Part shown: positions 10,721-45,544 of the stretch, in pieces
Position numbering within the stretch: position 1 is the first letter of the stretch
Layout of the letters: each line of letters starts with the position of its first letter
IMG/VR virus record: IMGVR_UViG_3300045988_148619
DNA: 52,382 nucleotides
Reading direction: 5' to 3' (one strand)
Origin: a virus
Translations under genes and position numbers: made by a program
Notes under the pieces: generated by a model
Told to the model about the DNA's origin: nothing
The model's database searches: none
The model's input: the letters and a program-made list of their open reading frames with translations, nothing else

Positions 10721-10751
10721 AAAAAAGCCCAAAGTTAAAATCCTTTAGGCT
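10721..10751 (-). terminator. Intrinsic terminator overlapping the large terminase stop codon
   Basis: Minus strand AGCCTAAAG gattttaa CTTTGGGCT (one mismatch), followed by TTTTTT. Confidence 0.55.
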
Positions 10752-12428
10752 TTTGATAGTATGTTCTTTTTCTTTGCCTTCCAGCAATTTCAACAGCTGA
10801 AGCCAGTGCATCAGGCAAGTCATCATGGTCATGGGCTGGAAACAGCTCTAGCTGTTCCTGAAGCAGTCTGTGACCTCTATTAAATCTTAGATAGCCATTT
10901 TCAACTAATGGCTCCAAGGTTTCAATCCTGTCCTCTTTCTTTCCTTTTGGATTAAATGCTAAAACTCTAGTAGAATATAGACCTTTTTGCATACACCTTT
11001 CCCTAAGTTGTCTGTACATATCATATTGAGCCTGTACTGTTTCAACACCAAATACTTTAGGCTTCCACTGTCTAACTTTCATTTCAGCAACTTCTAAAGC
11101 CTTGTGCATAGGGATTTTATCAGCCCAAGCATCTAGTACATAGATAACACCAGTAAATTTATCCCTTCCTATTGTAACAATGGCATTGTAGTCAGATCTT
11201 TTAGACTTACCAATGGCAATATCCCAAAATGAATATATATCAAGGTTTCTGTAGTCCATTTGGTGTTCATTATAATAAGTAAAATATTCTTTCTTAAAAA
11301 TACATGAATCATCATCTGAAGGTTTATTCAGATACTCTGAAGCAAAAGCCTTTGACCCCACATTAACTTTAATTTTCATAAGCTCAAAATAAGTAAATCT
11401 TTCATTCCAAAGAGTTCTACTCCCTTTGTCCATTTCTTCCTTATGCTCATAGTAAAATTTATCAGCTTCATACTCTCTGTTTGGATTTTCTGTATTTCTT
11501 AATAAAGTGTCTATATGTTCCCATAGATCCAACCTAACAGGTTCAGACACAATAGCTGAATAAATCTTCCCATCAAAATCTGACCTATTTAAAACATGGG
11601 GCAATAACCCCTGACCATGTACTAAAGTTCCCATGTAAATGAAGGCTGTTCTTGTTATATCTCCAATGGGCATGATAACAGAGTTGAACCAGTGGAGATT
11701 CTTCTCCCTTAAATCCTTTGTATTAGTATTTTTACTAGATTCTAAATCATCCAGTATAACTAAATCAGGCCTGTATGCCCCATGCCTAGCACCCCTTAGC
11801 TGTTTTCCTATAGATGCTGACTGTATTTTAATATTATTATGAGTGATGAATCCTTCTTGGTTATCCTGTTCATTTCCCATTTTAGAAGGGCTTAGCAGTT
11901 CACCAAAGTCCTCCCTAAGTTTCTTATTATATTTAAGCTGGTCACCAACCCACTCCACAAACCTTTTAGCCATAGCCTCTGTTTCAGAAACTATTAGTAT
12001 GTAGTGTCTTTTTGCAAATATGATTTGATGTGTTGGGAATACATTGGACATATAACCTGATTTAGCATGACCCCTTGGAACAGACCAGCAGATTTTCTTG
12101 GTAGGTTTAGTATTTAATTCATCCAGCTTTCCACAAAGCTCAGTGTGGAAGGCTGGGGCTTCTGTAAATACAGTTCCTTCAGGAATCAGATTATCTTCAT
12201 TTTCAGGATTGCCCTCATATGAAAAGTATTCATAAGCAAAATATAAAACATCATATTCAGACCTAAGCACCCTGTAAGCCCTGTCTATAGCTTTATATTG
12301 CTTCATGTACTCTGTTGCAATCTCTTTTTCTCCATTATCATTATAATATTTTGCAAGTTCTAAAACTTTAGCCTTGCCCTTTTCAAATCTTTCTAGTTTC
12401 TGTATTACCTCTTTAGGTAAATTGTTCA
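10735..12428 (-). CDS. Terminase large subunit
   Basis: ATG at 12428 follows GGAGGGGGA; the ORF-track start at 12495 adds an unlikely leader. It has the Walker-A-like VPRGHAKSG and a C-terminal nuclease region (DDLPDALASAVE). The portal gene lies downstream. Confidence 0.85.
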
Positions 12429-12496
12429 TATATATCCCCCTCCTACCCCTTTCTGTAGGTAAGAGGAAGTAAAACAAGTAAAAAATGCTAGGCATT

Positions 12497-13108: not shown

Positions 13109-13933
13109 TTATTTAACTCCTATTTTTTTCAAATACCTCCACAGGGTAGTCCTAGACATATTGCATCTTTCTGCTATCTCTGTTGCTGTATATTTGCCTT
13201 CCTTATATAAAGCTAGTGCAAGATCAAAGTTTGCACCATTTTTTAATTTCTTGCCATATTTGACACCCTTGCCTTTTATTTCTTCAGTGATTTGCTTCTG
13301 TTTTAGTGCTTTAAATTCTCCATCTAAATTATGTAAAGCCACCAATCCCTGATATTTAAAGATTGCATATTTTGAAGTACTGTCTATCCATACTTCTCTT
13401 AATGAAAGTACTCTGACCCCTTTTTTATGTAAGCCCACCAGGAACTCTAAAAGATCACTAATGTTATTAACTACATCTATTATCTGATTTAATACCAAAG
13501 TATCTCCATCTTTTAGTTTTGACATTAAGTGTTCATAACCTACTTGCTCAATATCTTTATCAACATAAATGTTTTCACACCCAGCATTCCTCAACTGCTT
13601 CATGACTAATTCCACATCTTGAGTATTAGAGGTTCTTAAATAGCCATATACCTTCCTATTTGTGTGTAAGTCCATTACTCCCTCATCTACAAAGCCACTG
13701 ATTGCCTGTAATCCCTGTATGAAGAAAGGGTATAACATTGGAATGTGGTATTTAATGTAATCATGGTCATATGTTCCATACTCTACAAATTTCTGCTGAG
13801 CAGTCAGGTTCCCAAGGACACAATTTTGAGCTAAGACCTTTAACCCATCTTGCAATGTTTCTACTGATTCCATACCTTCAATGCTTTTACAAGTTTCCTT
13901 CATTTCTTTTAAAACTAAGTTCACATCTTTCAT
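13109..13933 (-). CDS. Resolvase-fold (serine-recombinase-like) HTH protein with degenerate catalytic motifs. It could be a small terminase or a site-specific DNA-binding protein.
   Basis: 274 aa. YGYLRTSNTQD resembles the resolvase Y-x-R-V-S-T-x-x-Q motif. The D-R-x-x-R block is replaced by IIDVVNN. The C-terminal HTH reads YTATEIAERCNMSRTTLWRYLKK. A ~95-aa N-terminal extension is present. It lies two genes upstream of the large terminase gene. Confidence 0.55.
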   Translation of the reverse strand: MKDVNLVLKEMKETCKSIEGMESVETLQDGLKVLAQNCVLGNLTAQQKFVEYGTYDHDYIKYHIPMLYPFFIQGLQAISGFVDEGVMDLHTNRKVYGYLRTSNTQDVELVMKQLRNAGCENIYVDKDIEQVGYEHLMSKLKDGDTLVLNQIIDVVNNISDLLEFLVGLHKKGVRVLSLREVWIDSTSKYAIFKYQGLVALHNLDGEFKALKQKQITEEIKGKGVKYGKKLKNGANFDLALALYKEGKYTATEIAERCNMSRTTLWRYLKKIGVK

Positions 13934-14061
13934 TGTTTAGATTCTCCTATCTGTAAACAGTTGAAATCTTTTACAGGTATTGATTGTACCATTAAACTGT
14001 AAAAGCTACAACTATTATTTTTTCTATATTTTAATTTGTTGTGTTCTCTGTTGCTTCATAG

Positions 14062-14079
14062 TTTGTAACATTTGTAACA
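14062..14079. repeat. Tandem TTTGTAACA x2. Related half-sites occur at 14251-14256, 14264-14269, 14282-14287 and 14444-14451.
   Basis: tttgtaacatttgtaaca. TGTTAC/GTAACA words are clustered within 400 bp of ORF-free DNA. Confidence 0.6.
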
Positions 14080-14605
14080 CTATATACACACTTTAAAAAA
14101 ATACTTTTTTGAAATTTATGGAAGTGCTGTAAAATAACAGGATAATTTATCCAATGTCATGTAAAATACAGTATTAAGTCCTTATAGGGCTTGAACAAGT
14201 TGAAGTGTCTAGTTTTCCAGTTAATAGTTATGTAGTTTTTTATTGGTTTGTGTTACTGATTTCTGTTACTTACACATCTTATGTTACACTAAATTTGAAA
14301 CAAATGCAACACTTATTTTATGGAGGTAATTAAAGGAAATGTGTTTACAGCTTCTTGTATATATGAAAAATGATAAACACATAATCTATCAAGTTGATTC
14401 CCCATTTTTAAAGCCAGTATTACAGATTCATGGAACAAATGTATTGTAACACAATTAAATCCCCTCAGAATAGCTCTCAGGGGCTTAAATAAGTATTTAT
14501 AAACAGGATTCTAAACAAGAAACACACTTAAATATACTCCCCCATTTTATACTCAGTTTTAATGTTAATAAATTTTAAACACCTCTTATAATATATAAAT
14601 ATATA

Positions 14606-17723: not shown

Positions 17724-18971
17724 CTATTTAACTGGTTTGTGGCTTTTTGAAGGTACTTCCTTTGATACCCCTATCAAGTCACATAAAGCTTTAAACTCCT
17801 TTTTGTGGTTAGGCTTCAGCCCTTCTGTAACATATTGATAATGATGTATATATTGGTGTCTTATTGTGTCAGTTACATCTACATCTGAAGCAGTATCTAA
17901 ATAATGTTTAGAAAATTGTATTTTTATATTTTCCCCTTCAGTGTATTTAGCCCACTGAGTATTCATTTTGTCAGATATAACTATGTTCACATCTTCAAAA
18001 GAACAAGGCTTTAGGCCTACAGCTTCAGATTGTTCAGCTGTTACCTCTAACACCTGTCTTATAAGTTGTACATTCCATGTAATCAGTTTGCTATTTTCAG
18101 GTTTAGCTTCTATAGGTTCAGCCAAAGCCCCACCACATTCAGGACAAACCTCTGACCCTTTAGCCAAATGATGAACACACCCACAGTCAGTACATATATA
18201 TTTAACTGTTTCTTCAGCTGGTTCTTCTACTGGATTAGCCACCACAGGTTCAGCCACAGGTTCAACTACTGGCTCAACTGGTTCTTCAACAGGTTGTGCT
18301 GGTTTTTTAACTGGTGCATCAGCATCTACAAATTGAAACACTCCATGCCCAGCTTCTAAGCAGTCCCCACATATTACATTTACCTTTTTAGTAGCTCTTA
18401 TTATACAGCCACAGTTTGGGCAAACATACTTTCTTACAGATGATTTTTTGGCTGGTTCTTTAGAAGTTACCACACCATCTTTTCTTGATAAATTGAAGGC
18501 TTCCTTGTTTATGTCTGATTTGTCTATTAAGCCCATAGTTCCTGATTGAAGCTTAGTTAGTGACCACCCTATTCTTTCATCATGCTCAATGACTAACCCT
18601 GATCTTTCAGCCACTTCTTTAAACCTTTTATTGTGATATGTCCCACCTCTTGAAACATCCCTTATATCATTTTGTAAACAGTACAGGTGTACCATTTCAT
18701 GTATTAATGTTCCCATTACTGGATATACCCCCCTATTTAATCCTTCAGCTACTATATTAACTTCATATCTTTCCTCTTTTGTTTCTTGATTTCTCCAAGC
18801 CTTGTTTACTGTACACCAGCCTAGACACCCTTTTCTATTTCCCTTTGATTGGATTAATATAGCTGGCTCTTTTAATTCTCCATTAAAGAACTCTTTGTTG
18901 AATATTGCAAATGCTTTGTGTAATTCTGTTATTACCACTTCAGTGTTTATATTTTTTGGTTGTGTTTTCAT
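17724..18971 (-). CDS. Tandem SprT-like zinc metalloprotease-domain protein with two zinc ribbons
   Basis: ATG at 18971 follows AAGGAGAAAA. The first domain has HEMVH. It carries the zinc ribbons CPNCGC...CGDC and CTDCGC...CPECG and a PVEEPVEPVVEPVAEPVV repeat linker. The second SprT-like domain has HQYIH, with Glu replaced by Gln. Confidence 0.65.
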   Translation of the reverse strand: MKTQPKNINTEVVITELHKAFAIFNKEFFNGELKEPAILIQSKGNRKGCLGWCTVNKAWRNQETKEERYEVNIVAEGLNRGVYPVMGTLIHEMVHLYCLQNDIRDVSRGGTYHNKRFKEVAERSGLVIEHDERIGWSLTKLQSGTMGLIDKSDINKEAFNLSRKDGVVTSKEPAKKSSVRKYVCPNCGCIIRATKKVNVICGDCLEAGHGVFQFVDADAPVKKPAQPVEEPVEPVVEPVAEPVVANPVEEPAEETVKYICTDCGCVHHLAKGSEVCPECGGALAEPIEAKPENSKLITWNVQLIRQVLEVTAEQSEAVGLKPCSFEDVNIVISDKMNTQWAKYTEGENIKIQFSKHYLDTASDVDVTDTIRHQYIHHYQYVTEGLKPNHKKEFKALCDLIGVSKEVPSKSHKPVK

Positions 18972-19073
18972 GGTTATTTTCTCCTTAAATCTGTATAAAT
19001 TTTTATATAAATCATGTACTGGATAACTCAGACATTTCTTTCTGACTTCTTGCCTGTTTCTGAATACATTATT

Positions 19074-19102
19074 ATAATAGCAAAAGTTTGAAACACTTGC
19101 AA
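19074..19102 (-). promoter_or_regulatory. SigmaA-type promoter for the SprT-like gene
   Basis: Minus strand TTGCAA, a 17-nt spacer, then TATTAT. It lies 7 nt downstream of the palindrome at 19110-19127 and after the GNAT-gene terminator. Confidence 0.5.
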
Positions 19103-19109
19103 CACTTTT

Positions 19110-19127
19110 TTGAAAAATATTTTTCAA
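19110..19127. repeat. 18-bp palindrome copy (TTGAAW-N6-WTTCAA family)
   Basis: ttgaaaaatatttttcaa, a perfect palindrome. Confidence 0.8.
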
Positions 19128-19921: not shown

Positions 19922-20686
19922 TTAATTTATCCAATCTGTGGCAAAATGATGTCCTCCTATGGTCTGCATTGGGGTTAGGTGTTGCCAAATACTATGGCTA
20001 GGCCTTACCCATGTAGCCCAAAAGAATTTAACATTATCAGCCACTGCCTTCTCACCAGCCAAAGCCCTTTTAACTGCTTCTTTTGTTTCTTCTGAAGGCA
20101 CAGCTGTATTTATAGCAGAATTGCCTACAGGCTGAAACTGTCCTTTTTGGTATATCACACCTTCTATTGTATTAGGAAATGCTTCTGACTTCACCCTATT
20201 CAGAACAACATTAGAAACAGCAATCTTTCCCTGCATACTCTCACTTCCAGCTTCACATTGTACCAACCTTTCTAAAAGTCTTATATCTGAAGCTGTAGCT
20301 GTTATAGTTTCATTACTAACCTTTTTATTGCCCTTCTCAGAGGTTTTCTTAGCCTTAGTTGATGTTTGATGCCCTTTAATCTCTTTGGTTAATTGGTCTA
20401 ATAAATCCTCTTTGGCTGAAATTTGATCCCTAAGCCCAGCATTTATTTTTTGAAGTGTTTTGTACTTCTTTTGGAGTTTATCAAAGTCACTGTCTGACTG
20501 CTCCAGTTGGCTTACCAGCTTGTCAATCATCTTGTTCAACTCCTGTTGGTAAGCATTGTCTGATTTTACTTTTTGTGTATACTCTTCTTGTAAAGTGTTA
20601 TATTTTATATTTTTTGATATAACCAAACCTGTGAGGGACAGCATAACAGCCCCAGCACAGGTGAATTTAATTATCTTTTTATTCAT
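19922..20686 (-). CDS. SleB/CwlJ-type cell wall hydrolase with an N-terminal membrane anchor and coiled coil
   Basis: 254 aa. LLERLVQCEAGSESMQGKIAVSNVVLNRVKSEAFPNTIEGVIYQKGQFQPV matches the Hydrolase_2 (spore cortex-lytic enzyme) signature. The N-terminus has the TM segment CAGAVMLSLTGLVI. Confidence 0.7.
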   Translation of the reverse strand: MNKKIIKFTCAGAVMLSLTGLVISKNIKYNTLQEEYTQKVKSDNAYQQELNKMIDKLVSQLEQSDSDFDKLQKKYKTLQKINAGLRDQISAKEDLLDQLTKEIKGHQTSTKAKKTSEKGNKKVSNETITATASDIRLLERLVQCEAGSESMQGKIAVSNVVLNRVKSEAFPNTIEGVIYQKGQFQPVGNSAINTAVPSEETKEAVKRALAGEKAVADNVKFFWATWVRPSHSIWQHLTPMQTIGGHHFATDWIN

Positions 20687-21056
20687 ACCTTTGACCCCTT
20701 TTTGTATTCTTATCCATGTTCTTTAGGTTGTTGGTTACTCTATGATACTGCAAAGCATCTAAGGTTGCTTCTTCTTGTACTAACACCCTCTTTCTCCCCC
20801 TCCTATACAGCTGATGTTCTGATAAAACAGGATATTCTTCTAATGCTACCTTATTACACCTTGTATCTGTATAAGTTTCCTTTAACAGCCAAGTGCCTAG
20901 CATTTCTAGTAAAGTAGGTGGAAGATGCTCCCCTACCTCCATATAATATGTTTCATTTAGTTCTTCCACAGTTCTTTTTCTTTCTTCTATAGGTGGAAGT
21001 GTTTCCACTAACTGCTCCACCTCTTTAGTGTATTTATCTATCAGTGTATTTTGCAT
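20679..21056 (-). CDS. Hypothetical protein
   Basis: 125 aa, overlapping both neighbours in an operon-like arrangement. Confidence 0.5.
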   Translation of the reverse strand: MQNTLIDKYTKEVEQLVETLPPIEERKRTVEELNETYYMEVGEHLPPTLLEMLGTWLLKETYTDTRCNKVALEEYPVLSEHQLYRRGRKRVLVQEEATLDALQYHRVTNNLKNMDKNTKRGQRYE

Positions 21057-21354
21057 CCAATTCCCTCCATTTATCTACCACCTTTTGAAATTTAACCTTT
21101 ACTTTTTTAATGTGGTCAAGTACAGCCTGTTGTGTTATCCCCATTTTGACTGATGTTTCTTCTTGTGTATACTGCTGTATAAAGTATAGATTTAGAACCT
21201 CTAACTGTTTCTGAGTAAGTTTTGCTTCTTGAATAAGAAATTCAACATCAATCAGCAAGTCAATTTGGTTTATTTCCCCTGAGTAGGCACCTTCTTTTAT
21301 TTTGTCTTGATTACTTAGAACCCCCAACATAAATGGTGCTGTGTAACTATTCAT
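21034..21354 (-). CDS. Sigma-70 region-4-like HTH protein, a possible late transcription regulator
   Basis: ATG at 21354. LTQKQLEVLNLYFIQQYTQEETSVKMGITQQAVLDHIKKVKVKFQKV resembles a sigma region 4.2 HTH. Confidence 0.55.
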   Translation of the reverse strand: MNSYTAPFMLGVLSNQDKIKEGAYSGEINQIDLLIDVEFLIQEAKLTQKQLEVLNLYFIQQYTQEETSVKMGITQQAVLDHIKKVKVKFQKVVDKWRELDAKYTDR

Positions 21355-21919
21355 CACACAACACCCCACTGTCCATAAGGTCTTTAACTTTTCTTCTTAA
21401 ATCCTCAATAGATCCATCATTCACTATTGTTATATCAGGCCTTACAAGGTCAACTTGTTTCTCTGTTTCATGTTCTAAAGCTTCTTCTGTAAAAATATCC
21501 CCTGAAGCTAAACTTCTTTTAAATCTTGTTTCCTTTGGGGCTTCTACTTTGACAATCAAGTATCCCTCTTTTCTTAACCTGTCTGCTTCATTAAGTTGCC
21601 TCCCATCTGTCACAACAACCCTAAAAGGCTTTTTATTGTTCTTGTTTTCAACACTAAGCTTCAAGTCCATTTTATGGTGTAGAACCCTTTTTAATAAGTA
21701 TGTAATCCAAACATCATTGTCAAGCTCCCTCATACTTTGCCCTATGTGTTGATAGTGTTTCCTAGGTTTCCCATAAGATAATGCTGTTGGAAAATACTTA
21801 ACTATTATTTCACCAATCCCTTGAGCAAAGGCAAATTTTTCAAAACCATATTCTTCTGCAAGAATATCTGCTACTGTGTCCTTGCCAGTTCTCATCTTTC
21901 CAAATAATGCAATTTTCAT
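21347..21919 (-). CDS. Deoxynucleoside monophosphate kinase-like P-loop protein
   Basis: The likely start is ATG at 21919, 8 nt after GAGAGG. It has the P-loop LFGKMRTGKDT and resembles phage dNMP kinases. The ORF-track start at 21973 would lie inside the promoter-like motif. Confidence 0.5.
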   Translation of the reverse strand: MKIALFGKMRTGKDTVADILAEEYGFEKFAFAQGIGEIIVKYFPTALSYGKPRKHYQHIGQSMRELDNDVWITYLLKRVLHHKMDLKLSVENKNNKKPFRVVVTDGRQLNEADRLRKEGYLIVKVEAPKETRFKRSLASGDIFTEEALEHETEKQVDLVRPDITIVNDGSIEDLRRKVKDLMDSGVLCDE

Positions 21920-23580: not shown

Positions 23581-23598
23581 TTGAAAGTTATTTTTCAA
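23581..23598. repeat. 18-bp palindrome copy (TTGAAW-N6-WTTCAA family)
   Basis: ttgaaagttatttttcaa, straddling the polymerase stop codon. Confidence 0.8.
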
Positions 23599-25906
23599 AA
23601 GCCTTTCTTCCACAACCAGCCTTGACCCAATCATCAAAGCTAACACCTTGACCCCATACAGCTGATACTTCAACATCACACTTCATAGGGATTGATAATT
23701 TAACAGCCCTTTTCTGAATCTCAGCTATTTCTTGGACTTCCTCTTTTGTAGCTGTTGCTGGTATTTCTAAAAGCACTTCATCATGGATAGTTCCAATTAT
23801 ATCCCAGCCTTCTTTGTCCTTGATATGTCTGTATATATCAACCATAGCCTTTTTCATAATATCAGCTGAGCTACCTTGGATAACAGCATTTATGGACTGT
23901 CTAGCAACTCTGTTATAGTCTTTAGCAACAGCCCAATAATCCATTTTAGCCTGTCTTGATAGATTCTTTTCCTGCCATACATTGAAATTCTCTTTACCTA
24001 GATGTTTCTGAATGGCCTTGTGTCTTAAATGGTAACTCTTTGCTATTTGCTGATGACCAAGGAATCTTCTTTTTCTTCCAAACATTGTTTGAACAAATCC
24101 AAATTTATCAGCATGGGCATTAGTTTCTTTAAACCAGTTATCCATTGTAGGATAGGCTTCCTTGAAGTCAATATATATTTGTTCTGCTTCTTGTAGTGAT
24201 AGGCTGAAACTTTCAGCCAGTGACATTGAGCTGATTCCATACATCATTCCAAGTAAAACTACCTTAGCCATCTTTCTCCATTTAGACCCATCACCACATT
24301 CCTCTATTGGTTGTTTAAAGGTCTTGGAAGCAATCTCACTATATAAGTCCCTACCCTCTAAATACACTTCCATGAAATGTTCATCTTGAGATATGTGAGA
24401 AAGGAATCTAGGCTCAATTTGAGAGTAGTCTGACCCTATTATGATTTTATCTTCAGGAGCCACAAACATTTGTCTTGCTGGGTATGGTAGATTCTGAAGG
24501 TTAGGATTATTAGAAGCAAATCTTCCTGTTACTGTAGCTGACTGATTAAATGAACCATGTAACCTCCCATCAGCTCCCACCTTGTTTGGTAATGGCTCTA
24601 TATATGTTGTAAGAAGTTTATTCAACTCTCTATACTTCAATAGAACAGTTATATAATTTACTTTCTCAATCTTACTTCCCCAATCTCTAACAATCTTTTT
24701 AAGTGTTTGGGCATCTACCTTTCCTTTATATTCATCTATAACACCCCACTGGTTATAAATAACTTCAGCTAATTGTTGATTAGAGTTTATATTTATATCA
24801 CCAAATCCTTCTGCTATCTTGCTTTGAAGCTCAGCCACTTCTTCCTCTAGTTCCTTTTTGTATTTTTCTGCAAAGCCTAGATCAATCAGGAAGCCTTTCT
24901 TCTCCATAGCTATGCAAACTTCTGTTATAGGCAATTCTATATTAAAATATAAGTCCTTTAATTGAGGGATTCTGTCAAACTGTTCTAAGACCCAACAACC
25001 AAATTTATAAGTTAAATGGGTATCTTTACAAGCATATACAGTCCCAATGTCTAAAGGTGTTTTCTCAAAGCCACCCTTACCAAACAGTTCCTCATAAGTC
25101 ATTGATTTATCTTCAAATCCAAAGAACTTACCATACTTTGTTGCTAGGTTCTTCAGTGCAAAGCTTGGCTCATTCTCATTAAGCAAGTGCATAGCCACCA
25201 TAGTGTCCAAGTATAGACCTTGAAGTTCTATTCCTTCTTTTCTCAGCACATGAACATCAAACTTTGAATTGTGTAGCATCTTCTTAATGTGTTTATTTTC
25301 TAGTATAGGTTTAAGGCTTTCAAACACTATTACAGGATCTAGCTGTTCATCTTCCAACTCATGCCTAACTGGAATGTAACAATGGTAATCAGCCTTTGGT
25401 AGTGTAAGAGATATTCCAACAATAACATCTTTGCCCCATATATCAACTCCTGTGGTTTCTGTATCAACAGCCAGTACTTCTTCAAATCTTAGTAAATATT
25501 TTAAATGTCTAAATTGTTCCCATGTTGTTATGCAATGGTAATTTGCTGGGCAATCTCTGACCATATCTTTAATTATCTGTTCTTTTCTAACCTCCATTAG
25601 AACCTTATACAGCCCTAGTGCTTTAGTCTTTGTGAACTTGCTTAGTGAATCTACCCCTGAAGGTATTTCACCAACCTCTATAGCCTGTTTAACCTGTAAC
25701 AGCTTGGCTCTGTCTGAATCAGTAACCTTAGTCTGAAATATAGCCTTCTTAATAGTTCCTGTGTGGGTCTTATACCCTGTTTCCCAAACCTCAGCCCATG
25801 TTGGCTCATATTTAGCCATCTTCTTTTTCTCTGTAGCTTTCTTGACCCTCTGCTGTGCTTGGGTTTCCTTATTGGATTCTAGTTTTAGATTCAATTCTAA
25901 ATTCAT
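23588..25906 (-). CDS. polA: Family A DNA polymerase with a 3'-5' exonuclease domain
   Basis: 772 aa. Exo I reads LAVDTETTG. Motif A reads IIGSDYSQIEPRFLSHISQDE. Motif B reads RKMAKVVLLGMMYG. Motif C reads IGTIHDEVLLE. Confidence 0.9.
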   Translation of the reverse strand: MNLELNLKLESNKETQAQQRVKKATEKKKMAKYEPTWAEVWETGYKTHTGTIKKAIFQTKVTDSDRAKLLQVKQAIEVGEIPSGVDSLSKFTKTKALGLYKVLMEVRKEQIIKDMVRDCPANYHCITTWEQFRHLKYLLRFEEVLAVDTETTGVDIWGKDVIVGISLTLPKADYHCYIPVRHELEDEQLDPVIVFESLKPILENKHIKKMLHNSKFDVHVLRKEGIELQGLYLDTMVAMHLLNENEPSFALKNLATKYGKFFGFEDKSMTYEELFGKGGFEKTPLDIGTVYACKDTHLTYKFGCWVLEQFDRIPQLKDLYFNIELPITEVCIAMEKKGFLIDLGFAEKYKKELEEEVAELQSKIAEGFGDININSNQQLAEVIYNQWGVIDEYKGKVDAQTLKKIVRDWGSKIEKVNYITVLLKYRELNKLLTTYIEPLPNKVGADGRLHGSFNQSATVTGRFASNNPNLQNLPYPARQMFVAPEDKIIIGSDYSQIEPRFLSHISQDEHFMEVYLEGRDLYSEIASKTFKQPIEECGDGSKWRKMAKVVLLGMMYGISSMSLAESFSLSLQEAEQIYIDFKEAYPTMDNWFKETNAHADKFGFVQTMFGRKRRFLGHQQIAKSYHLRHKAIQKHLGKENFNVWQEKNLSRQAKMDYWAVAKDYNRVARQSINAVIQGSSADIMKKAMVDIYRHIKDKEGWDIIGTIHDEVLLEIPATATKEEVQEIAEIQKRAVKLSIPMKCDVEVSAVWGQGVSFDDWVKAGCGRKAFEK

Positions 25907-25938: not shown

Positions 25939-25970
25939 GTCTAGGTTCACCCTAGCCTATTGGATGTGAC
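25939..25970 (-). promoter_or_regulatory. Bipartite promoter-like motif copy (GTCACA-N15-TGWAC-CTAWAY)
   Basis: Minus strand GTCACAtccaataggctagggTGAACCTAGAC, 32 nt upstream of ATG 25906. Confidence 0.6.
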
Positions 25971-25986: not shown

Positions 25987-26020
25987 AAAAAAAAGACAGG
26001 CAATTAAGCCTGTCTTTTTT
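25987..26020. terminator. Bidirectional-looking intrinsic terminator at the end of the salvage operon
   Basis: aaaaaaaaGACAGGCaattaaGCCTGTCtttttt. Confidence 0.75.
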
Positions 26021-26252
26021 ACTCTCTATTACTTTTTATAAAATAATCATGGACTACAGTTAGCCCCTTCCAAAGCAATATTGCTATACCCACTATTTGA
26101 AGTGGCACCATAGGTAACCCATAATATATAAGAATTGAATTTAATAATACTGTAAGTAAAGCACACATAAGGAACACACCACATATTATTACTAAACCAG
26201 CCCCTACAATTAAACCAGCACCTATTAATAAATTCTTTGTTGATTTCTTCAT
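26019..26252 (-). CDS. Small membrane protein with two predicted TM helices
   Basis: 77 aa with a GGGGTGA RBS. It has hydrophobic stretches LLIGAGLIVGAGLVIICGVFLMCALL and LQIVGIAILLW and lies directly after the transporter gene. Confidence 0.5.
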   Translation of the reverse strand: MKKSTKNLLIGAGLIVGAGLVIICGVFLMCALLTVLLNSILIYYGLPMVPLQIVGIAILLWKGLTVVHDYFIKSNRE

Positions 26253-26262
26253 ACAATCACCC

Positions 26263-27432
26263 CTATATCATAAGACCTATAACAGCACCAGTTAATAAGT
26301 TTACTGCTGTAGCTGTTAATAATGCCTTAACACCTAATTTAGCAACCACCCCAACTTTCTCAGGAGCAACAGCTGAATAACCACCTATTAATATTCCTAT
26401 TGAACCTATTCCAGCAAACCCACATAATGCCACTGTTACCATTGCTTTGGCTTGTGTTCCTAACATAGCAAATTGAGGTAATGCAAAGGCAACTGCTTCA
26501 TTAGTAACCAATTTAGTAGCTAGTATTTCAGAAGCTAAAGATACATCTGAAGCTGGTACCCCCATAATAACAGCTAATGGCTTAAATACTATACCTAATA
26601 TACTTTGCATAGTAACACCTTCAAAGAACAGCCCTATAAAGTTGTTTATCATAAATACTACAGATAAGAACACCATTAAAGCTACTGATATTCCTATAAC
26701 CCCTTTAAATCCAGCTGTGGCATAATTCATCATTGTTTCTGTTGCATTTATACCTTTATCTGTAGATTCAACCTCTATTACTTCATTAGTGTATTTAGTA
26801 GGCATTAGTATTTGAGTTAATACAAATGTAGAAAATACAGTTAAAGGCATTGATACAAGAATCCATTCCATAGAAGCCCCATAGCCAACATAAAGACCAA
26901 CAACTGAAGCTGATATTGAAGTCATACCACCAACTAAAGTGGCAAATATAACTGAATCAGAAGCTTTAGGTAAATATGATTTAGTTACAAATAAAGATTC
27001 TGATTGACCTAAAAACATATTAGTAACACCATTTACAGCTATTAAAGTGTCTACCTTTAAAACCTTAGCTACTGTGTTTCCTACAACAGCAATAAACTTT
27101 TGTAATATCCCAAAGTGGAATAATAACCCCATGATTGCTGATATAAACACTATAGGCAATAAACTATTTATGAAGAATACATAGTTGTCTGATATACCAC
27201 CAAACACAAAATTAATTCCTTCTGTAGCCTGAGATAATAACCATGTAACACCATTAGAAGCAAGTTCAACTAATTTCCATAGGGGTGTTTTTATTAAAGC
27301 TAATGCCAAAACTAATTGACCAGCAAAAGCACAACCCACTGACTTCCAATTTATCTCCTTCTTATTACTTGAAAATAGGTAGGCAATGCCTACAATTACA
27401 AATATTCCAACAAATCCAAATATCTTTTCCAT
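26263..27432 (-). CDS. nupC: NupC-family (concentrative) nucleoside transporter
   Basis: 389 aa with an AAGGAG RBS. Blocks EGINFVFGG, PIVFISAIMGLL, LGQSE, ILGIVFKPLAVIMGVPASDV, ATKLVTNEAVA and FAGIGSIGI line up with E. coli NupC blocks recalled from memory. Confidence 0.85.
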   Translation of the reverse strand: MEKIFGFVGIFVIVGIAYLFSSNKKEINWKSVGCAFAGQLVLALALIKTPLWKLVELASNGVTWLLSQATEGINFVFGGISDNYVFFINSLLPIVFISAIMGLLFHFGILQKFIAVVGNTVAKVLKVDTLIAVNGVTNMFLGQSESLFVTKSYLPKASDSVIFATLVGGMTSISASVVGLYVGYGASMEWILVSMPLTVFSTFVLTQILMPTKYTNEVIEVESTDKGINATETMMNYATAGFKGVIGISVALMVFLSVVFMINNFIGLFFEGVTMQSILGIVFKPLAVIMGVPASDVSLASEILATKLVTNEAVAFALPQFAMLGTQAKAMVTVALCGFAGIGSIGILIGGYSAVAPEKVGVVAKLGVKALLTATAVNLLTGAVIGLMI

Positions 27433-27471
27433 TTCACAATCTCCTTATTATTTAATTTTCAAAGTTCAAGG

Positions 27472-27765
27472 CTAGGAGATCAATCCTCTAAGCCTTAGCA
27501 AATATATAGCCTTACTTACCACTAAAGGGTCATTGAAAGGCAAGTCAAACCCTGAAGCATGAGTTAATTTCTTAAACTCTTTAGCATAAACAACCTTGTC
27601 AGCCAGTTCAGGATAGTCTTTCTGAAGTCTTATCAACTCATTACACCACTTATCAAAAGTTGAATCCTCTATGATGTTGGAATCAAACCTGTAATAAATA
27701 CAGGAATGAACCAATATCTGAAGTCTTCTTCTTTGGATTAGCTCCATAATCTTTTTATCTTCCAT
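27472..27765 (-). CDS. Hypothetical 97-aa protein resembling domain Ia of NAD-dependent DNA ligase
   Basis: LQILVHSCIYYRFDSNIIEDSTFDKWCNELIRLQKDYPEL follows the LigA N-terminal pattern YY..d.p.isD.eYD.l..eL..lE..yPel. No adenylation domain is present. Confidence 0.3.
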   Translation of the reverse strand: MEDKKIMELIQRRRLQILVHSCIYYRFDSNIIEDSTFDKWCNELIRLQKDYPELADKVVYAKEFKKLTHASGFDLPFNDPLVVSKAIYLLRLRGLIS

Positions 27766-28408
27766 CTCTCAGTTCCTCTAGTTTCTTATCTATCAACTGA
27801 AGGACTTCCTTTTTATCTTCTTCATTATTTACAAAGTCATATTTATCAATGTCTATAACTAAGACCTCTGAAGCCTTATAATGATTAAACACCCAATCAT
27901 CATAACCTTCCCACAATGCCCTGTAATAATCTTTTAGGCTTTCATCAATTTCAAAGTCCCTACCTCTTTTTGCAATCCTTTCAAGTATTGTTTCAAAACT
28001 CCCTGAAAGGTATATAAACAGGTCAGGGCTTTTCTTAGGCAGTTCTTCTAGTTCCTCCATCATATTCTCTAATAGGCTTTCATAAATACCAAATTCAAGG
28101 TCTGATATTCTTCCCATATCTTTATTTACTTTGGCAAAATACCAATCTTCATATAGTGACCTATCAAGAACATTATCTTGATTAGTTAAAGCCTGTTTGA
28201 TACTTTTAAATCTTGTGTCTAAGAAATACAGCTGTAATAAAAATGGGTATCTCTTAGCTTGGATTTCTTCATCACTGGCTGTATAGAATAAAGGTAATAC
28301 TGGATTATCCTCAACACTTTCATAAAATACTTCAGACCCTAGGTGTTCCCCTAACAGCCCTGCTAAGCTAGATTTACCAGCCCCTATCATTGCTCCAATT
28401 ACTATCAC
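27755..28408 (-). CDS. Deoxynucleoside kinase
   Basis: The likely start is GTG at 28408, 7 nt after GGTGGA, forming a GTGA overlap with the upstream small ORF. It has the P-loop GAMIGAGKSS, an LDRSLYED (ERS-like) motif and the lid RIAKRGRDFE. Confidence 0.8.
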   Translation of the reverse strand: MIVIGAMIGAGKSSLAGLLGEHLGSEVFYESVEDNPVLPLFYTASDEEIQAKRYPFLLQLYFLDTRFKSIKQALTNQDNVLDRSLYEDWYFAKVNKDMGRISDLEFGIYESLLENMMEELEELPKKSPDLFIYLSGSFETILERIAKRGRDFEIDESLKDYYRALWEGYDDWVFNHYKASEVLVIDIDKYDFVNNEEDKKEVLQLIDKKLEELRDGR

Positions 28409-28542
28409 AATAACATCCACCTATCTTTCTGTTTTTCCAATTCTTCAATTTCTTGTTTTTGTTTTTGAATAATATCTTTCAATTCTTCAATTATTTTATC
28501 TTGGTTCTTAATGTGATTTTCTATTGCTTTTAACTCTAGCAA
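28405..28542 (-). CDS. Possible 45-aa coiled-coil micro-ORF, below the ORF-track size cut-off
   Basis: TTG at 28542 lies 5 nt after GGGGGTG. The frame reads LLELKAIENHIKNQDKIIEELKDIIQKQKQEIEELEKQKDRWMLL. Its stop overlaps the dNK GTG start as GTGA. Confidence 0.3.
   Translation of the reverse strand: MLELKAIENHIKNQDKIIEELKDIIQKQKQEIEELEKQKDRWMLL
28465..28482. repeat. 18-bp palindrome copy (TTGAAW-N6-WTTCAA family)
   Basis: ttgaataatatctttcaa, between the TK and dNK genes. Confidence 0.7.
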
Positions 28543-28553
28543 ATCAACACCCC

Positions 28554-29096
28554 CTACCCTATAAAATCAAAGTAGCATTTCCTACATAAAGGAACATACA
28601 GGTCTTTGGCTCCAAGCTGTACTACAGAATCATTTTCAACCCTTTTCCCTGACATGACTGCATCTTCACCACATTCCTCACATATAGCTTTCAACTTATT
28701 GACCTTATCAGCCATAGCCATTAAATCCATAGCTGTTCCAAATCCTTGACCTTTAAAGTCCATATCTAAACAAGATACATAGATTGTTTTACCAGCCTTC
28801 AGAAGCCCATTTATAGATTGTAGTATCACTTTATCAAAGAATTGTGCTTCATCTATCAGTATGACCTCATAGGCATCTATATCAACTTCTAAGGGTTTAG
28901 AAGTATCTACAGCCACAGCCTTTACTCTTAGATTTGAATGTGTTACAATTTCATCTTCTGAATACCTTGTGTCCATACTAGGCTTTATATACAAAACATT
29001 TTGCCCAGCTCTCATGTGTTTTTCACCCTGAGATATTAACAAAGTGGATTTACCTGAGAACATAGCCCCAGTGTTAACTGTTAGTGTTGCCTTCAT
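28554..29096 (-). CDS. tdk: Thymidine kinase
   Basis: 180 aa. It has the P-loop GAMFSGKSTLLI, Walker B ILIDEAQFF, and the zinc motif CEECGE...CRKCY. Confidence 0.9.
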   Translation of the reverse strand: MKATLTVNTGAMFSGKSTLLISQGEKHMRAGQNVLYIKPSMDTRYSEDEIVTHSNLRVKAVAVDTSKPLEVDIDAYEVILIDEAQFFDKVILQSINGLLKAGKTIYVSCLDMDFKGQGFGTAMDLMAMADKVNKLKAICEECGEDAVMSGKRVENDSVVQLGAKDLYVPLCRKCYFDFIG

Positions 29097-29343
29097 CTTC
29101 TACCTCCCTAGTGATTAAAACTTTTCTTCTTGGTATAAGTACAGCATCTAAAACTTGGTCTATGTCTGATATGATATTAAATTCCTCAACCACATCACCA
29201 GCATTACTACCCTCTAGGCTTACAAGACCATACCTATGGTCTCCATAAGGTCTTTGGAACTCTACCACCATACAAGGTTTTCTGTTGTATAAAACTATAT
29301 CCCCAGTGTAGCAATCACACTTTTTAGTTAGTCTTACCTTCAT
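29074..29343 (-). CDS. Hypothetical protein
   Basis: 89 aa, the first gene of the salvage transcription unit. A GGGCAGGTGA RBS precedes it. Confidence 0.5.
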   Translation of the reverse strand: MKVRLTKKCDCYTGDIVLYNRKPCMVVEFQRPYGDHRYGLVSLEGSNAGDVVEEFNIISDIDQVLDAVLIPRRKVLITREVEDEGNTNS

Positions 29344-29377: not shown

Positions 29378-29409
29378 ATTTAGGTTCACTGATTAAGACC
29401 AGCTGTGAC
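29378..29409 (-). promoter_or_regulatory. Bipartite promoter-like motif copy (GTCACA-N15-TGWAC-CTAWAY)
   Basis: Minus strand GTCACAgctggtcttaatcagTGAACCTAAAT, 34 nt upstream of ATG 29343 and preceded by GGGGGTGGGG. Confidence 0.6.
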
Positions 29410-29421
29410 CCCCACCCCCAT

Positions 29422-29447
29422 AAAAAAAAGAAGGGAATTAACCCTTC
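29422..29447 (-). terminator. Intrinsic terminator after the N6-methyltransferase gene
   Basis: Minus strand GAAGGG ttaatt CCCTTC, followed by TTTTTTTT. Confidence 0.75.
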
Positions 29448-29972
29448 TTAAACAGTCTTTTTTATTTCCTCAAATACTATCTGTTGTGGTAGCATTTTGG
29501 AACATAAATAAACACTTGAAAAAGGTGGATTCATAGAAGGCTTAGTATCTTCATAGTCCTTAAAATAGGATACCCTTCTATTTAAATACATAATTTCAAA
29601 ATCATTATCCCTAAACATTTCAAATCTTTTTTGACTTTCAAATAGCCCAACCACTCCAACCAGCATGGCAAAAGGAATATTTAATTCAAATAATCTTTGG
29701 AACACTTCCCCCTTCATAGAGTAAGGGGGGTTACTTATGATGTAATCACATTCAGGGGCTTCCATTTCAAAGAAGTCTTGCCCACTAGATATATGGGTAG
29801 GTATGACTGCATGTCCCCCCTTTCTCAACTCTTTAACATACAGACTATCTTCAGTATCAAAAGGACACCAAACCTTTGAGTTGGGATTTATATATTTTTT
29901 AATAGGTTCTATTGCATATTTTGGTGTGTAAAATTCATCATTCTTACTCCCAGCCACCTTATCCATCTTCAT
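29448..29972 (-). CDS. Putative N6-adenine DNA methyltransferase (NPPY motif)
   Basis: The likely start is ATG at 29972, overlapping the RuvC stop as TAATG. It has the N-terminal NDEFYTP motif and the catalytic motif IISNPPYS. Confidence 0.6.
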   Translation of the reverse strand: MKMDKVAGSKNDEFYTPKYAIEPIKKYINPNSKVWCPFDTEDSLYVKELRKGGHAVIPTHISSGQDFFEMEAPECDYIISNPPYSMKGEVFQRLFELNIPFAMLVGVVGLFESQKRFEMFRDNDFEIMYLNRRVSYFKDYEDTKPSMNPPFSSVYLCSKMLPQQIVFEEIKKTV

Positions 29973-30487
29973 TATTTCAATAATCCTTTCTTTATACAAT
30001 AAGTCAAGGCAACAGCTACAGCATCAGATTCATCATCAGAATAAAATTTTATTCCCTTTTGATCCTCTGACAAAAGCTGTCTAACTCCTTCCTCAACCTC
30101 TAATTTATCTGCTTTAGAATAACCAGCCACAATGGACTTTACAACTGTAGGAGGTAGTTCCTCTATGGACTTGATTCCCCCTTCTTGATAAGCAACCAAA
30201 TCAGCAACTCCAACTACTCTAAATAATAGCTGTGTTGTATTAGCAAATCTGCTGAATCCTTTCTCCCTAACAACCACATCAAAATTCCCATATCTTTGAA
30301 AAATATCTTTCAATTTAACAGCAATTCTATCTAGCTTTTCAGGTGTTGTGTACTTGCCTTTCTTGTTGTCTATATGGAATATTTCTACCAGCTTAAATTC
30401 TCCATCTATGACCTGAGCCACACACCCAGCTGGAAGATTTAAAGAAAGGTCTAAGGCTAGTATTAATTGATTATTCTTCTTTTTCAT
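29972..30487 (-). CDS. ruvC: RuvC-like Holliday junction resolvase
   Basis: 171 aa. The acidic residues lie in LILALDLS, VVVREKGF and DDESDAVAVALTY, the pattern of phage RuvC-type resolvases. Confidence 0.7.
   Translation of the reverse strand: MKKKNNQLILALDLSLNLPAGCVAQVIDGEFKLVEIFHIDNKKGKYTTPEKLDRIAVKLKDIFQRYGNFDVVVREKGFSRFANTTQLLFRVVGVADLVAYQEGGIKSIEELPPTVVKSIVAGYSKADKLEVEEGVRQLLSEDQKGIKFYSDDESDAVAVALTYCIKKGLLK
30296..30313. repeat. 18-bp palindrome copy (TTGAAW-N6-WTTCAA family), intragenic
   Basis: ttgaaaaatatctttcaa, inside the RuvC-like gene. Confidence 0.7.
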
Positions 30488-39838: not shown

Positions 39839-40186
39839 TTGTTCATTTCTTTTACTCATTATTCCTTGAATCTTCATTTTATTAGCCTTGGGTTTTGGTG
39901 GCTCAGCTGGTTCAGTAGTTACTGCTGTTTCATTAGTCCCAGCACCTTGTTGACTTTGGATTAGTTTTATTAGGGCTTCTATATCTAGCCCTGTTGGATT
40001 TGTATTTAGTTGTGACATGGCTGTGGGCTGTGGCCTTCTACCAGCCATATCATCTCTGATTAATTGCTTAACATAATTTGAAAAACTCCCCTGACTATCA
40101 GCCCACTCAATTAGGTCTAGTTCATTATCCATGAAAGATACATTAATTATGTATCTTCCATCTTTTCTAGGCTTTCTAATCTTCAT
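39827..40186 (-). CDS. parR: ParR-like centromere-binding protein (ribbon-helix-helix-like N-terminus)
   Basis: ATG at 40186 lies 6 nt after GAGG. GRYIINVSFMDNELDLIEWADSQGSFSNYVKQLIRDDM has a beta-helix-helix pattern. The gene follows the ParM-like gene. Confidence 0.5.
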   Translation of the reverse strand: MKIRKPRKDGRYIINVSFMDNELDLIEWADSQGSFSNYVKQLIRDDMAGRRPQPTAMSQLNTNPTGLDIEALIKLIQSQQGAGTNETAVTTEPAEPPKPKANKMKIQGIMSKRNEQGTE

Positions 40187-41090
40187 ATAATGCCTCTGCA
40201 ACAGCTTGATAAACTTCTTGGTTTATATATTGGCTGTTTTCTATTAATTCAGCTTTTGGGAAGTGTTTCTTCCAGTATTTAAAGGTATTAATAGCACCCC
40301 CACCAAATACTTGGATAGCATCAGCACCTACATAGTCAATGTTTTTAGTGAATGATATTAAATCATATACTAAACCATCAAAGGCACTGTCCACTTCTTT
40401 CTCAACACTTACTTGACCAGTTTTTGTGTTCATAACTGGGTTGCTGACATATCTTTCAACATCAGGTGGATTTAAATGTGTTTTATGTTTTTCATTAATC
40501 AGCTGTGTTAGGTCAGTGTACACTTTATTCATAGAACCATTATTTGTATAATGATTAGCTATTTCTTGCTCTCTCCACTCTATGATATTTATTGTACCCA
40601 TGCCCACATCTATAGTAATTATATGTCTATCATCATTATCCCTAATTGGCAATGCTCCTTCTATAAATACTTTCATATTCTTAAAATCTATTATGTAATG
40701 CTTACCATCAACAGTGATTTCTTCAACTCCTAAGCCATTTAAATAGGCTTCAACATCATCAGCTTGGTTATTGTAGTGGTCTACAGGTATTCCCACAACT
40801 AGATTAGCCTCTAATGGATTTTTTGCCACTGGTGTAGCTAAAGCTGTAGCTGTTAGAAGTGCTATTTTATATTCCTCTGTAAAGTATCTATCTTCTGAAA
40901 TGAATGAATGGCCTTCACCTACTACATAAGAAGCTCCTTTATATATTACCTCATGAACCTCAGCTTTGTGCTTTATGTTGTAGCCATTTGCCTTTTGAAG
41001 TGTTCCCTGTCTTATCTTTGAAGCAAATCTGTTTCCTACTCCATACTTACAGTACCCATTTCCAATATCAAGTCCTTTTTTAATAATCAT
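40176..41090 (-). CDS. parM: ParM/StbA-type actin-like plasmid segregation ATPase
   Basis: 304 aa. The N-terminal phosphate-1 motif reads KGLDIGNGYCKYG. Internal motifs are ITIDVGMGTINI and VFGGGAI. Confidence 0.7.
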   Translation of the reverse strand: MIIKKGLDIGNGYCKYGVGNRFASKIRQGTLQKANGYNIKHKAEVHEVIYKGASYVVGEGHSFISEDRYFTEEYKIALLTATALATPVAKNPLEANLVVGIPVDHYNNQADDVEAYLNGLGVEEITVDGKHYIIDFKNMKVFIEGALPIRDNDDRHIITIDVGMGTINIIEWREQEIANHYTNNGSMNKVYTDLTQLINEKHKTHLNPPDVERYVSNPVMNTKTGQVSVEKEVDSAFDGLVYDLISFTKNIDYVGADAIQVFGGGAINTFKYWKKHFPKAELIENSQYINQEVYQAVAEALYED

Positions 41091-45477: not shown

Positions 45478-45544
45478 AATATGACCCCCTTTCACTATTT
45501 ACACAAACTACTGTAAACAAACAATATTAAAAACAAGCTTATTA

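Follow-up and report, generated by a model that had tools for sequence, protein, structure and literature searches.

Auxiliary genes of nucleotide metabolism are well known in phages, where they normally rework intracellular pools. The virus record analysed here, IMGVR_UViG_3300045988_148619 from IMG/VR (a 52.4-kb element with 35% GC; "the window" below means this whole stretch of 52,382 nucleotides), carries a seven-gene minus-strand operon in which a full-length nucleoside:cation symporter of the CNT/NupC family (CNT) stands in one unit with a deoxynucleoside kinase (dNK) and a thymidine kinase (TK), with a deoxynucleoside monophosphate (dNMP) kinase gene nearby, as had been described in an earlier note made from the letters of this DNA alone. 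The block is probably a host-derived auxiliary salvage operon of a Clostridium phage-plasmid that feeds phage DNA synthesis. This reading is carried by the identities of the genes, the layout of the operon, the conservation of the transporter's binding site, purifying selection, the recurrent linkage of CNT and dNK genes and the cellular origin of the CNT gene. In the proposed mechanism, the symporter would sit in the host membrane and import exogenous (deoxy)nucleosides, probably with Na+; TK would phosphorylate thymidine and deoxyuridine, and dNK deoxyadenosine, deoxyguanosine and deoxycytidine; the separately promoted dNMP kinase and the host nucleoside diphosphate kinase would then lead to deoxynucleoside triphosphates (dNTPs) for the family-A DNA polymerase (PolA) encoded downstream. 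The operon would be transcribed from the promoter class of the phage replication genes, and the phage would thereby supplement the only de novo route visible in the host, the oxygen-sensitive class III ribonucleotide reductase (RNR) NrdDG, to which the cellular orthologue of the CNT gene is chromosomally linked. Since transporter-kinase cassettes recur in several unrelated gut phages, scavenging of outside nucleosides looks like a real and apparently undescribed phage strategy.

The 389-aa protein matches PF01773 (Nucleos_tra2_N; 1.7e-20, 73.8 bits with a cutoff of 27) and PF07662 (Nucleos_tra2_C; 3.6e-42, 144.9 bits, cutoff 32.3), and its Gate domain scores 28.7 bits, slightly under the cutoff of 29.6. 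An unnamed PHROGs family (phrog_25571) matches it over its full length. It has about ten hydrophobic segments, its residues 5-388 are collinear with residues 11-421 of nwCNT (5l26, 1.5e-51), and it also matches vcCNT (3tij, 1.9e-51) and CNT3 chains (1e-32 to 1e-35). The roles of individual residues in CNTs are known from structural work (PMC4139061, PMC7440666, PMC5465479, bioRxiv 10.1101/2023.02.03.527023, hereafter the CNT structural literature). At the Na+ site, vcCNT N149, V152, S183 and I184 correspond to N138, L141 (a backbone contact), S172 and I173 of the window protein; the base contacts G153, Q154, T155, E156 and V188 correspond to G142, Q143, S144, E145 and V177, with Ser in place of T155 also in E. 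coli NupC; and of the ribose contacts, E332, F366 and S371 are kept as E312, F339 and S344. At N149, the H+-coupled NupC of E. coli carries Ser instead (CNT structural literature). Because Asn is kept at this sodium-site position, the window protein is probably Na+-coupled. The earlier note had let its assignment depend on hits to CNT hidden Markov models (HMMs) and on the conserved binding-site residues: the HMMs are hit and the Na+ and base contacts are kept, but one ribose contact, N368, is replaced by Gly throughout the subfamily, a point taken up below.

The families that had been proposed for the 389-aa, 221-aa, 180-aa and 97-aa proteins and for the product of 21347-21919 were all recovered in Pfam and PHROG profile searches (Table 1). 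The 180-aa TK scores 175.8 bits with NCBIfam NF003296, slightly below the cutoff of 183; the PDB entries closest to it are TKs of Bacillus and Clostridium (2ja1, 2j9r and 1xx6; 1e-34 to 1e-32), and it shows the P-loop GAMFSGKS and the zinc cysteines CEEC...CRKC. The 221-aa dNK has its closest PDB matches in the deoxynucleoside kinases of Mycoplasma (2jaq and 2jas, 1e-23), which places it in the purine/cytosine-dNK type, and shows the P-loop GAGKSS, LDRS (the DRS motif) and the lid RIAKRGRDFE. From what is known of the two families, TK and dNK plausibly cover all four deoxynucleosides. The dNMP kinase is of the T4 type and weakly matches T4 1dek; its start is most likely the ATG at 21919, because a longer open reading frame (ORF) from a TTG at 21973 overlaps its own promoter motif. 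No RNR, ThyA/ThyX or dUTPase domain was detected in the scanned window ORFs of at least 150 aa (outside the scan lay two ORFs of this size in the structural-gene region, 4249-4701 and 7355-7930, and most ORFs under 150 aa), in line with the earlier note, which saw none of these enzymes. Its conclusion that the phage could do without de novo synthesis is too strong, because related Clostridium genomes encode NrdDG, beside their own copy of the CNT gene.

Three small proteins complete the operon beside these enzymes and a 97-aa NAD+-binding domain protein considered further on. The first gene product, of 89 aa, gave no Pfam, NCBIfam, PHROG or PDB match and is 41-42% identical to the ORF preceding TK in L003 and L019 (loci compared with the window are cited by L numbers). 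The 45-aa micro-ORF, previously listed as no more than possible, is 80-98% identical in L001 and L002 and resembles, by eye, a 53-aa ORF in the same slot of L019 (IEN..Q..II..LKDIIQ); because both ORFs are kept at matching positions in relatives they are real genes, and the micro-ORF is a conserved one. The last gene product, of 77 aa, was found only in L001 and L002 and is lacking downstream of CNT at all other phage and cellular loci compared. It showed no similarity to the 166-aa protein downstream of the cellular CNT (E 0.09) or to a 66-aa protein of the Clostridium perfringens element pCPC216_2 (E 0.52). The suggestion that it is an accessory subunit of the transporter finds no support, as it is confined to two near-identical contigs and no homolog stands beside CNT elsewhere. 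Its candidacy as a holin was also dropped (PF07332 0.0013, 19 bits with a cutoff of 28), the actual holin and endolysin genes lying elsewhere (Table 1).

All seven reading frames reported earlier on the minus strand are present where they had been placed. They are tightly packed, with spacings of -23, 11, -16, -11, 39 and 10 nt, and are bounded by a promoter motif and a terminator. Six of the seven have a clear Shine-Dalgarno-like sequence, and a weak one precedes the GTG start of dNK. What had been noticed as a promoter-like motif near 29378-29409 proved to be a member of a class, GTCACA-N15-TG(A/T)AC(C/A)TA, for which 0.46 sites would be expected in the window and 11 are present; all of these lie between 21958 and 42354 and on the minus strand. 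Six exact sites were examined and all lie upstream of gene starts; exact sites stand about 30-45 nt 5' of early and replication gene starts, some of them preceded by GGGGTGGGGG (examples of motif sites are 23530-23502, 25970-25942, 29409-29381, 31464-31436, 33771-33743 and 35061-35033). The motif is unlike the sigma-70 consensus, and a sigma-70 promoter scan of the window gave 14 sites versus 16.3 in shuffles, thus no excess. For recognition of the GTCACA motif, a small sigma-like protein encoded at 21034-21369 is a candidate. The motif recurs in L001, L002 and the diverged L019 before the first cassette gene, and in L019 also before PolA; as such it was not found in L003, L024 or pCPC216_2. 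At its far end the operon closes in the terminator that the earlier note had proposed, a hairpin with a 13-bp stem, and the terminator of the upstream methyltransferase gene shields it from read-through.

The CNT has chromosomal homologs at 75-77% identity in Clostridium, as would be expected if host DNA had been misjoined to a phage contig. This explanation is effectively refuted. The terminal 55 nt of the window are identical at both ends, an overlap that fits a circular assembly; neither GC content nor GC skew shifts across the operon block; the block bears the phage's own promoter motif; and two independent IMG/VR contigs share the arrangement at 98% identity, with analogous ones in many independent assemblies. 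The block is thus phage DNA, as the earlier note had argued from the closed circle and the shared promoter motif.

The element itself has structural and lysis modules of siphovirus type (terminase, portal, capsid, tape measure, Dit, Tal, holin and endolysin) and a minus-strand replication module with DnaC-like, DnaB, primase, PD-(D/E)XK nuclease, RuvC and family-A polymerase genes. These phage genes are accompanied by a Rep_3 plasmid initiator and a ParM-like segregation protein, no tyrosine integrase was found among the window proteins examined, and kin of the element have been deposited as a plasmid. The closest cultured relative is the 55-kb Clostridium perfringens "plasmid" pCPC216_2 (NZ_CP075975.1), with 63% identity in PolA, 66% in DnaB and 76% in the PD-(D/E)XK nuclease, followed by the Clostridium phages FA67 and FA70 with 50% identity in PolA. 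Because these are the nearest relatives, in that order, the window is read as a siphovirus phage-plasmid of Clostridium, for which extrachromosomal maintenance is predicted.

A phage-plasmid might also express the operon as a plasmid prophage, so that extra nucleoside uptake and salvage would benefit the gut lysogen. Apart from the plasmid genes, the lack of a tyrosine integrase among the proteins examined and the C. perfringens kin, this lysogenic conversion is favoured by a promoter class that also serves replication genes which a plasmid prophage may need, and by the Bacillus phage-plasmid pBtic235, whose CNT-like gene belongs to what its describers call the "plasmid module", among metabolic genes. 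As the principal explanation we consider it unlikely: the cassette is part of the replication module, where it directly precedes PolA in the same orientation, SPbeta-like and HK97-type phages also have it beside DNA-replication or packaging genes, and its partners TK, dNK, nucleoside 2-deoxyribosyltransferase (NDT) and dNMP kinase point to supply of DNA precursors and not to catabolism. A benefit to the lysogen is compatible with the salvage operon feeding phage DNA synthesis, and the two are not mutually exclusive.

That importer and kinase belong together, as first supposed from the window, gains strong support from a survey in which genes of the CNT subfamily and dNK stood together in three unrelated phage backbones, with a further pairing of dNK and a canonical CNT in L026. 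The first backbone is the PolA siphovirus/phage-plasmid lineage, comprising the window, L001-L005, L019 and L024; in L003-L005, L019 and L024 the order is TK, small ORF, dNK, NDT, CNT, PolA. The second consists of SPbeta-like phages with YorF and YorH (L006-L009, L011 and L012), where dNK, NDT, a class-B acid phosphatase and CNT follow one another in this order, and the third is an HK97-head phage (L020 and L021) with dNK-CNT just before the small terminase gene. The window dNK is 58-80% identical to the CNT-partner dNK of the other backbones, and dNK reaches 95% identity between the PolA lineage and the SPbeta-like phages, which indicates that the cassette has been exchanged between phages. 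The acid phosphatase of the sister cassettes (PF03767) has an N-terminal signal/anchor segment and the HAD motif DIDET, and its secretion is predicted; with this enzyme and NDT, the sister cassettes would offer a full route of dephosphorylation outside the cell, import, base swap and re-phosphorylation. IMG/VR yielded five contigs with CNT. The SPbeta-type gene is the most abundant version, accounting for 102 of the best 120 database clusters; one SPbeta-type cluster, P0109, is recorded on 232 contigs and indexed in 258 collection blocks. The SPbeta-like cassette (L006 3301-7718, L007, L008, L009, L011 and L012, from pig gut and other samples) also occurs with an alpha-amylase-like gene, and two SPbeta-type contigs were binned into "Treponema" and Lachnospiraceae metagenome-assembled genomes, probably by mis-binning. 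Just upstream of the cassette, L003 (7492-7737), L004 and L005 have a weak Tad2-like gene (anti-Thoeris family), where the window has its methyltransferase gene.

In L003, L019, L024 and L006, NDT occupies the slot that in the window is filled by the 97-aa protein, which is domain Ia of LigA alone, devoid of the ligase catalytic module, and is predicted to bind NAD+; it gave no PDB sequence match. Phage FA67 also encodes such a protein, elsewhere in its genome, and solo Nlig-Ia has been reported as a phage-only NAD+-binding protein in 81 phages (PMC9503650). Its presence bears on the possibility of counter-defence, in which imported precursors would restore dNTP or NAD+-related pools depleted by a host defence, with Nlig-Ia sensing or buffering NAD+. 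Host defences that deplete nucleotides include dCTP deaminase and dGTPase systems, and others deplete NAD+. Besides the solo Nlig-Ia domain within the operon, the Tad2-like gene of L003-L005 would fit such a role, as would the pBtic235 CNT-like gene, which lies near genes for nicotinate phosphoribosyltransferase (NaPRTase), phosphoribosyl pyrophosphate (PRPP) synthetase and a SIR2-like deacylase. With NDT in place of Nlig-Ia in most relatives, Nlig-Ia is however no constant partner of CNT, the base-contact residues of the CNT are the canonical nucleoside ones, and the context is explained no better than by simple precursor supply, so that counter-defence appears quite improbable.

Several points weigh against the proposed feeding of phage DNA synthesis by nucleoside salvage. 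With NCBIfam TIGR00804 (nupC) the CNT scores 287.8 bits, under the trusted cutoff of 442, which indicates a divergent subfamily, and only three of the four ribose contacts are retained, the fourth, vcCNT N368, being Gly341 in the window protein; the replacement and the sub-cutoff score together mean that the substrate could differ from canonical nucleosides. We infer the substrate of the CNT, its transport direction and coupling ion, the timing of expression and the gain in burst size; expression may extend beyond the lytic phase, as the same promoter class stands before genes of replication and partition type which a phage-plasmid may express in lysogeny. Related Clostridium genomes own a close copy of the CNT gene, and the gain from a second copy is assumed. 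A fourth backbone, L025 (IMGVR_UViG_3300045988_145181, 1352-7705, from the same metagenome), has a 58% identical CNT between genes for Pol III alpha, a PD-(D/E)XK nuclease and RuvC, and dNK is lacking within 6 kb of it.

The replaced ribose contact is accompanied by a second change, Ala313 at the position of vcCNT F333, the neighbour of the Glu in HP2. Both were followed in 120 close homologs (clade members) and 142 distant representatives of 50% clusters: the N368 position is Gly in 120 of 120 close homologs and in none of the 142 distant representatives (137 of which have Asn), and the F333 position is Ala in 119 of 120 versus 0 of 142. The L025 protein has Gly at the first position and Val at the second. 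Residue N368 has been described as ribose-binding and invariant between vcCNT and hCNTs, and hCNT3 N565A retains uridine binding (CNT structural literature). The replacement of N368 is not decay, because it is subfamily-wide and under purifying selection, dN/dS being 0.11-0.13 among phage CNT copies versus 0.046 for a cellular pair. The Gly/Ala replacements suggest an altered recognition of the sugar; a preference of this pocket for 2'-deoxyribose is speculation. The remodelled pocket could instead admit a non-canonical substrate such as nicotinamide riboside, a modified nucleoside or a nucleoside antibiotic, as the near-complete separation of the two groups in the census, the reported invariance of N368, the score under the nupC cutoff and the NAD+-binding neighbour in the window might suggest. 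Such a substrate is nevertheless very improbable, given that the same Gly/Ala signature occurs in cellular copies linked to nrdDG, a deoxynucleotide context, that dNK is the constant partner in phages, that all nucleobase contacts and E332, F366 and S371 are kept, and that the hCNT3 mutant still binds uridine. In L026 (IMGVR_UViG_2826782446_000003, 4324-8172, a predicted prophage), an unrelated canonical CNT that is 34% identical and retains N368 and F333 is encoded beside a primase gene, some 0.8 kb downstream of the gene for a 289-aa dNK; this is an independent CNT-dNK pairing.

The salvage operon's transporter gene has close relatives in cellular genomes. A scan of GTDB genomes found CNT genes with 69-77% identity in Clostridia, and a large protein database holds more than 120 CNT clusters at 77-99% identity, many of them on 46-57-kb contigs; for over 100 database clusters, the nearest references are phage-context ones. 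In Clostridium culturomicium (a 696-kb contig) and three other Clostridium assemblies, the CNT gene directly follows nrdD-nrdG among housekeeping genes (L014 7161-11167; also L010, L013 and L018) with the gene for a conserved membrane protein of some 160 aa next in line; this linkage of salvage to de novo synthesis was not seen described. These nrdDG-linked proteins are 388-389 aa long, 75-77% identical to the window CNT and have the same Gly/Ala signature. Homologs in Anaerosporobacter and Cellulosilyticum also stand in ordinary chromosomal contexts; in Anaerosporobacter (L017) a PurA-like gene precedes CNT instead. Because the signature is common to cellular and phage copies, what phages carry is a cellular CNT subfamily of Clostridia, and the gene has the marks of a host-origin auxiliary gene: it lies inside a bona fide phage genome and has 69-77% identical homologs in housekeeping contexts. 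Judged by these sequence relationships it is a cellular Clostridia gene carried by phages and not a phage invention, with the nrdDG-linked Clostridium genes as its evident cellular source or sink. The chromosomal gene follows the anaerobic RNR operon and has no adjoining dNK or TK, whereas the phage gene is off nrdDG and joined to kinases. The four nrdDG-linked CNTs form a clade in 200 of 200 bootstraps, and the phage copies do so in 1 of 200. A single capture by phages, taken from a first neighbour-joining tree, was therefore dropped when more phage sequences had been included. The idea that the phage clade is remote from all cellular CNTs was also withdrawn; it had come from a library of 50% representatives, in which the window CNT is at most 39% identical to CNTs outside its own subfamily, except for one relative at 50% (P0121), and the genome scan then gave the 69-77% identical chromosomal genes.

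A more far-reaching proposal, possible but doubtful at present, is that phages of gut Clostridia have a modular nucleoside-acquisition locus, made of dNK and a swappable importer (the N368G CNT, a canonical CNT or a PQ-loop/SemiSWEET protein) with an optional secreted nucleotidase and NDT. The N368G/F333A CNT would then be a dedicated deoxynucleoside importer that backs up RNR in the host and has been repeatedly captured and traded by phages, and phage replication would be limited by, and partly fed from, the breakdown products of extracellular DNA. A secondary-active importer in a kinase operon would mean that the virus also draws DNA precursors from outside the cell; in the sister cassettes, a base-swapping transferase and a secreted nucleotidase come on top. 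As the cassette travels among unrelated phages of the gut and is abundant in metagenomes from animal guts, it could affect phage productivity, the turnover of nucleosides and extracellular DNA there, and how sensitive lysogens are to nucleoside-analogue drugs. The Clostridia CNT subfamily that lacks N368 and is linked to nrdDG in Clostridium also provides a natural variant for studies of sugar selectivity.

Table 1. Coordinates of the operon, its control signals and other features of the window
Feature	Position	Strand	Remarks
89-aa protein, first operon gene	29074..29343	-	overlaps TK start by 23 nt
TK1-type thymidine kinase, 180 aa	28554..29096	-	PF00265 1.7e-47, 162 bits (cutoff 20.6)
45-aa coiled-coil micro-ORF, TTG start	28405..28542	-	Shine-Dalgarno-like GGGGGT upstream
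Deoxynucleoside kinase (dNK), 221 aa, GTG start	27755..28420	-	PF01712 1.8e-39, 136.1 bits (cutoff 27)
Solo Nlig-Ia protein, 97 aa	27472..27765	-	PF22745 2.7e-28, 98.9 bits (cutoff 27); phrog_6466 5e-31
CNT/NupC-family nucleoside:cation symporter, 389 aa	26263..27432	-	Nucleos_tra2_N + Nucleos_tra2_C; Clostridia-specific subfamily; transport predicted
77-aa protein, 2-3 hydrophobic segments, last operon gene	26019..26252	-	lineage-specific
Promoter-class motif GTCACA-N15-TGAACCTA	29381..29409	-	preceded by GGGGTGGGGG; putative operon promoter
Bidirectional intrinsic terminator ending operon	25989..26020	.	13-bp stem, 5 GC pairs, 6-nt loop, A6/T8 flanks
Intrinsic terminator of upstream methyltransferase gene	29428..29449	-	8-bp stem, 4 GC pairs, then T-run
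DNA methyltransferase gene	29448-29999		directly upstream of operon
Family-A DNA polymerase (PolA)	23588-25906	-	directly downstream of operon; presumed dNTP consumer
Promoter motif copy for PolA	25942..25970	-	exact site
T4-type dNMP kinase	21347..21919	-	PF21448 (DNMK) 2.5e-15, 57.1 bits (cutoff 27.1); phrog_139 2.4e-49
Promoter motif copy for dNMP kinase	21986-21958	-	one mismatch
Rep_3 plasmid initiator	43435-44481	+	
Actin-like ALP/ParM segregation protein	40176-41090	-	ALP_N/ParM-like
Resolvase-like recombinase	13109-13933	-	sole recombinase type found
Tape measure	877-3492		
Major head protein	6397-7278		
Portal	9109-10620		
Large terminase	10735-12495		
Amidase endolysin	44518-45495		
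Holin	45804-46262		
Dit + Tal	48977-52354		

Elsewhere in the window, the region between the replication and packaging modules encodes a 467-aa protein with a C-terminal SprT-like metalloprotease domain (17724-19127) and a 254-aa membrane-anchored cell-wall hydrolase of SleB type (Hydrolase_2; 19922-20686). The window polA is intact; in relatives the family-A polymerase gene is interrupted by homing endonucleases, of the GIY-YIG/NUMOD3 type in L003 (12345-15818) and I-HmuI-like in FA67 (L029 8962-12225).

The novelty that had been suggested for a nucleoside permease inside a phage kinase operon stands in one respect, as no paper describing a phage-encoded NupC/CNT was found in literature searches; it does not in another, as the window is not unique, given P0109 with its 232 contigs and pBtic235. 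A megablast search with the operon found nothing among GenBank phages, and the sole tblastn hits of the CNT there were nine unannotated "Kay" contigs with at most 41% identity, which stem from lysates of Staphylococcus, Listeria and Salmonella. These unannotated records (OR844998, OR844992, OR844990, OR851140 and others, 2-214 kb) have CNTs typical of the chromosomes of these genera and are probable host carry-over deposited as phage, which calls for caution in auxiliary-gene surveys of GenBank phages.

Among known systems, the solved or characterised CNTs (TC 2.A.41/SLC28: vcCNT, nwCNT, E. coli NupC and hCNT1-3) share with the window protein the Pfam pair, the Na+ site and the base contacts, whereas the window subfamily has Gly for N368 and Ala for F333 and is phage-encoded. 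In herpesviruses, UL43/BMRF2 proteins, with the fold of equilibrative nucleoside transporters (ENT), are homologs of a host nucleoside transporter with a proposed metabolic role (PMC11410667); unlike the window CNT, they belong to eukaryotic viruses, have an unrelated fold, were found by structure only and are not part of a kinase operon. The element pBtic235/pBTHD789-2 is a cultured and inducible 235-kb jumbo phage-plasmid of Bacillus thuringiensis serovar israelensis that carries a 394-aa CNT-like gene, annotated as "nucleoside transporter C-terminal domain-containing protein", and NDT elsewhere; the paper on pBtic235 mentions only "metabolite transporters". The CNT-like protein is only 34.6% identical to the window CNT and no kinase operon surrounds its gene, which lies (L027 207009-225971) amid prs (PRPP synthetase), NaPRTase, SIR2-like deacylase, TerD and nrdIEF genes, so that pBtic235 has its own RNR; this block suggests an island for nucleotide and NAD supply.

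The nearest relative, pCPC216_2, has ParM and a syntenic replication module (DnaC-like, DnaB, primase, PD-(D/E)XK, RuvC, TK, dNK, PolA, dNMP kinase and sigma-like genes) with 44-76% protein identity; its dNK (L028 12829-13476) is 69% identical and is missing from the PLSDB gene table. It differs in having no CNT: the slot directly upstream of PolA (14034-14516) holds a 93-aa PQ-loop transporter of SemiSWEET type and the 66-aa protein, which has two transmembrane segments, so that the PQ-loop protein on one side and the CNT with the 77-aa protein on the other may be interchangeable importers in one slot. The TK, dNK and dNMP kinase of the window are ordinary members of phage-catalogued families (phrog_592, phrog_761 and phrog_139). 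Known phage nucleotide modules act on intracellular pools, whereas the window adds a polytopic importer in the same transcription unit; the operon thus appears to extend the familiar nucleotide-salvage auxiliary genes of phages by a built-in, apparently undescribed, importer.

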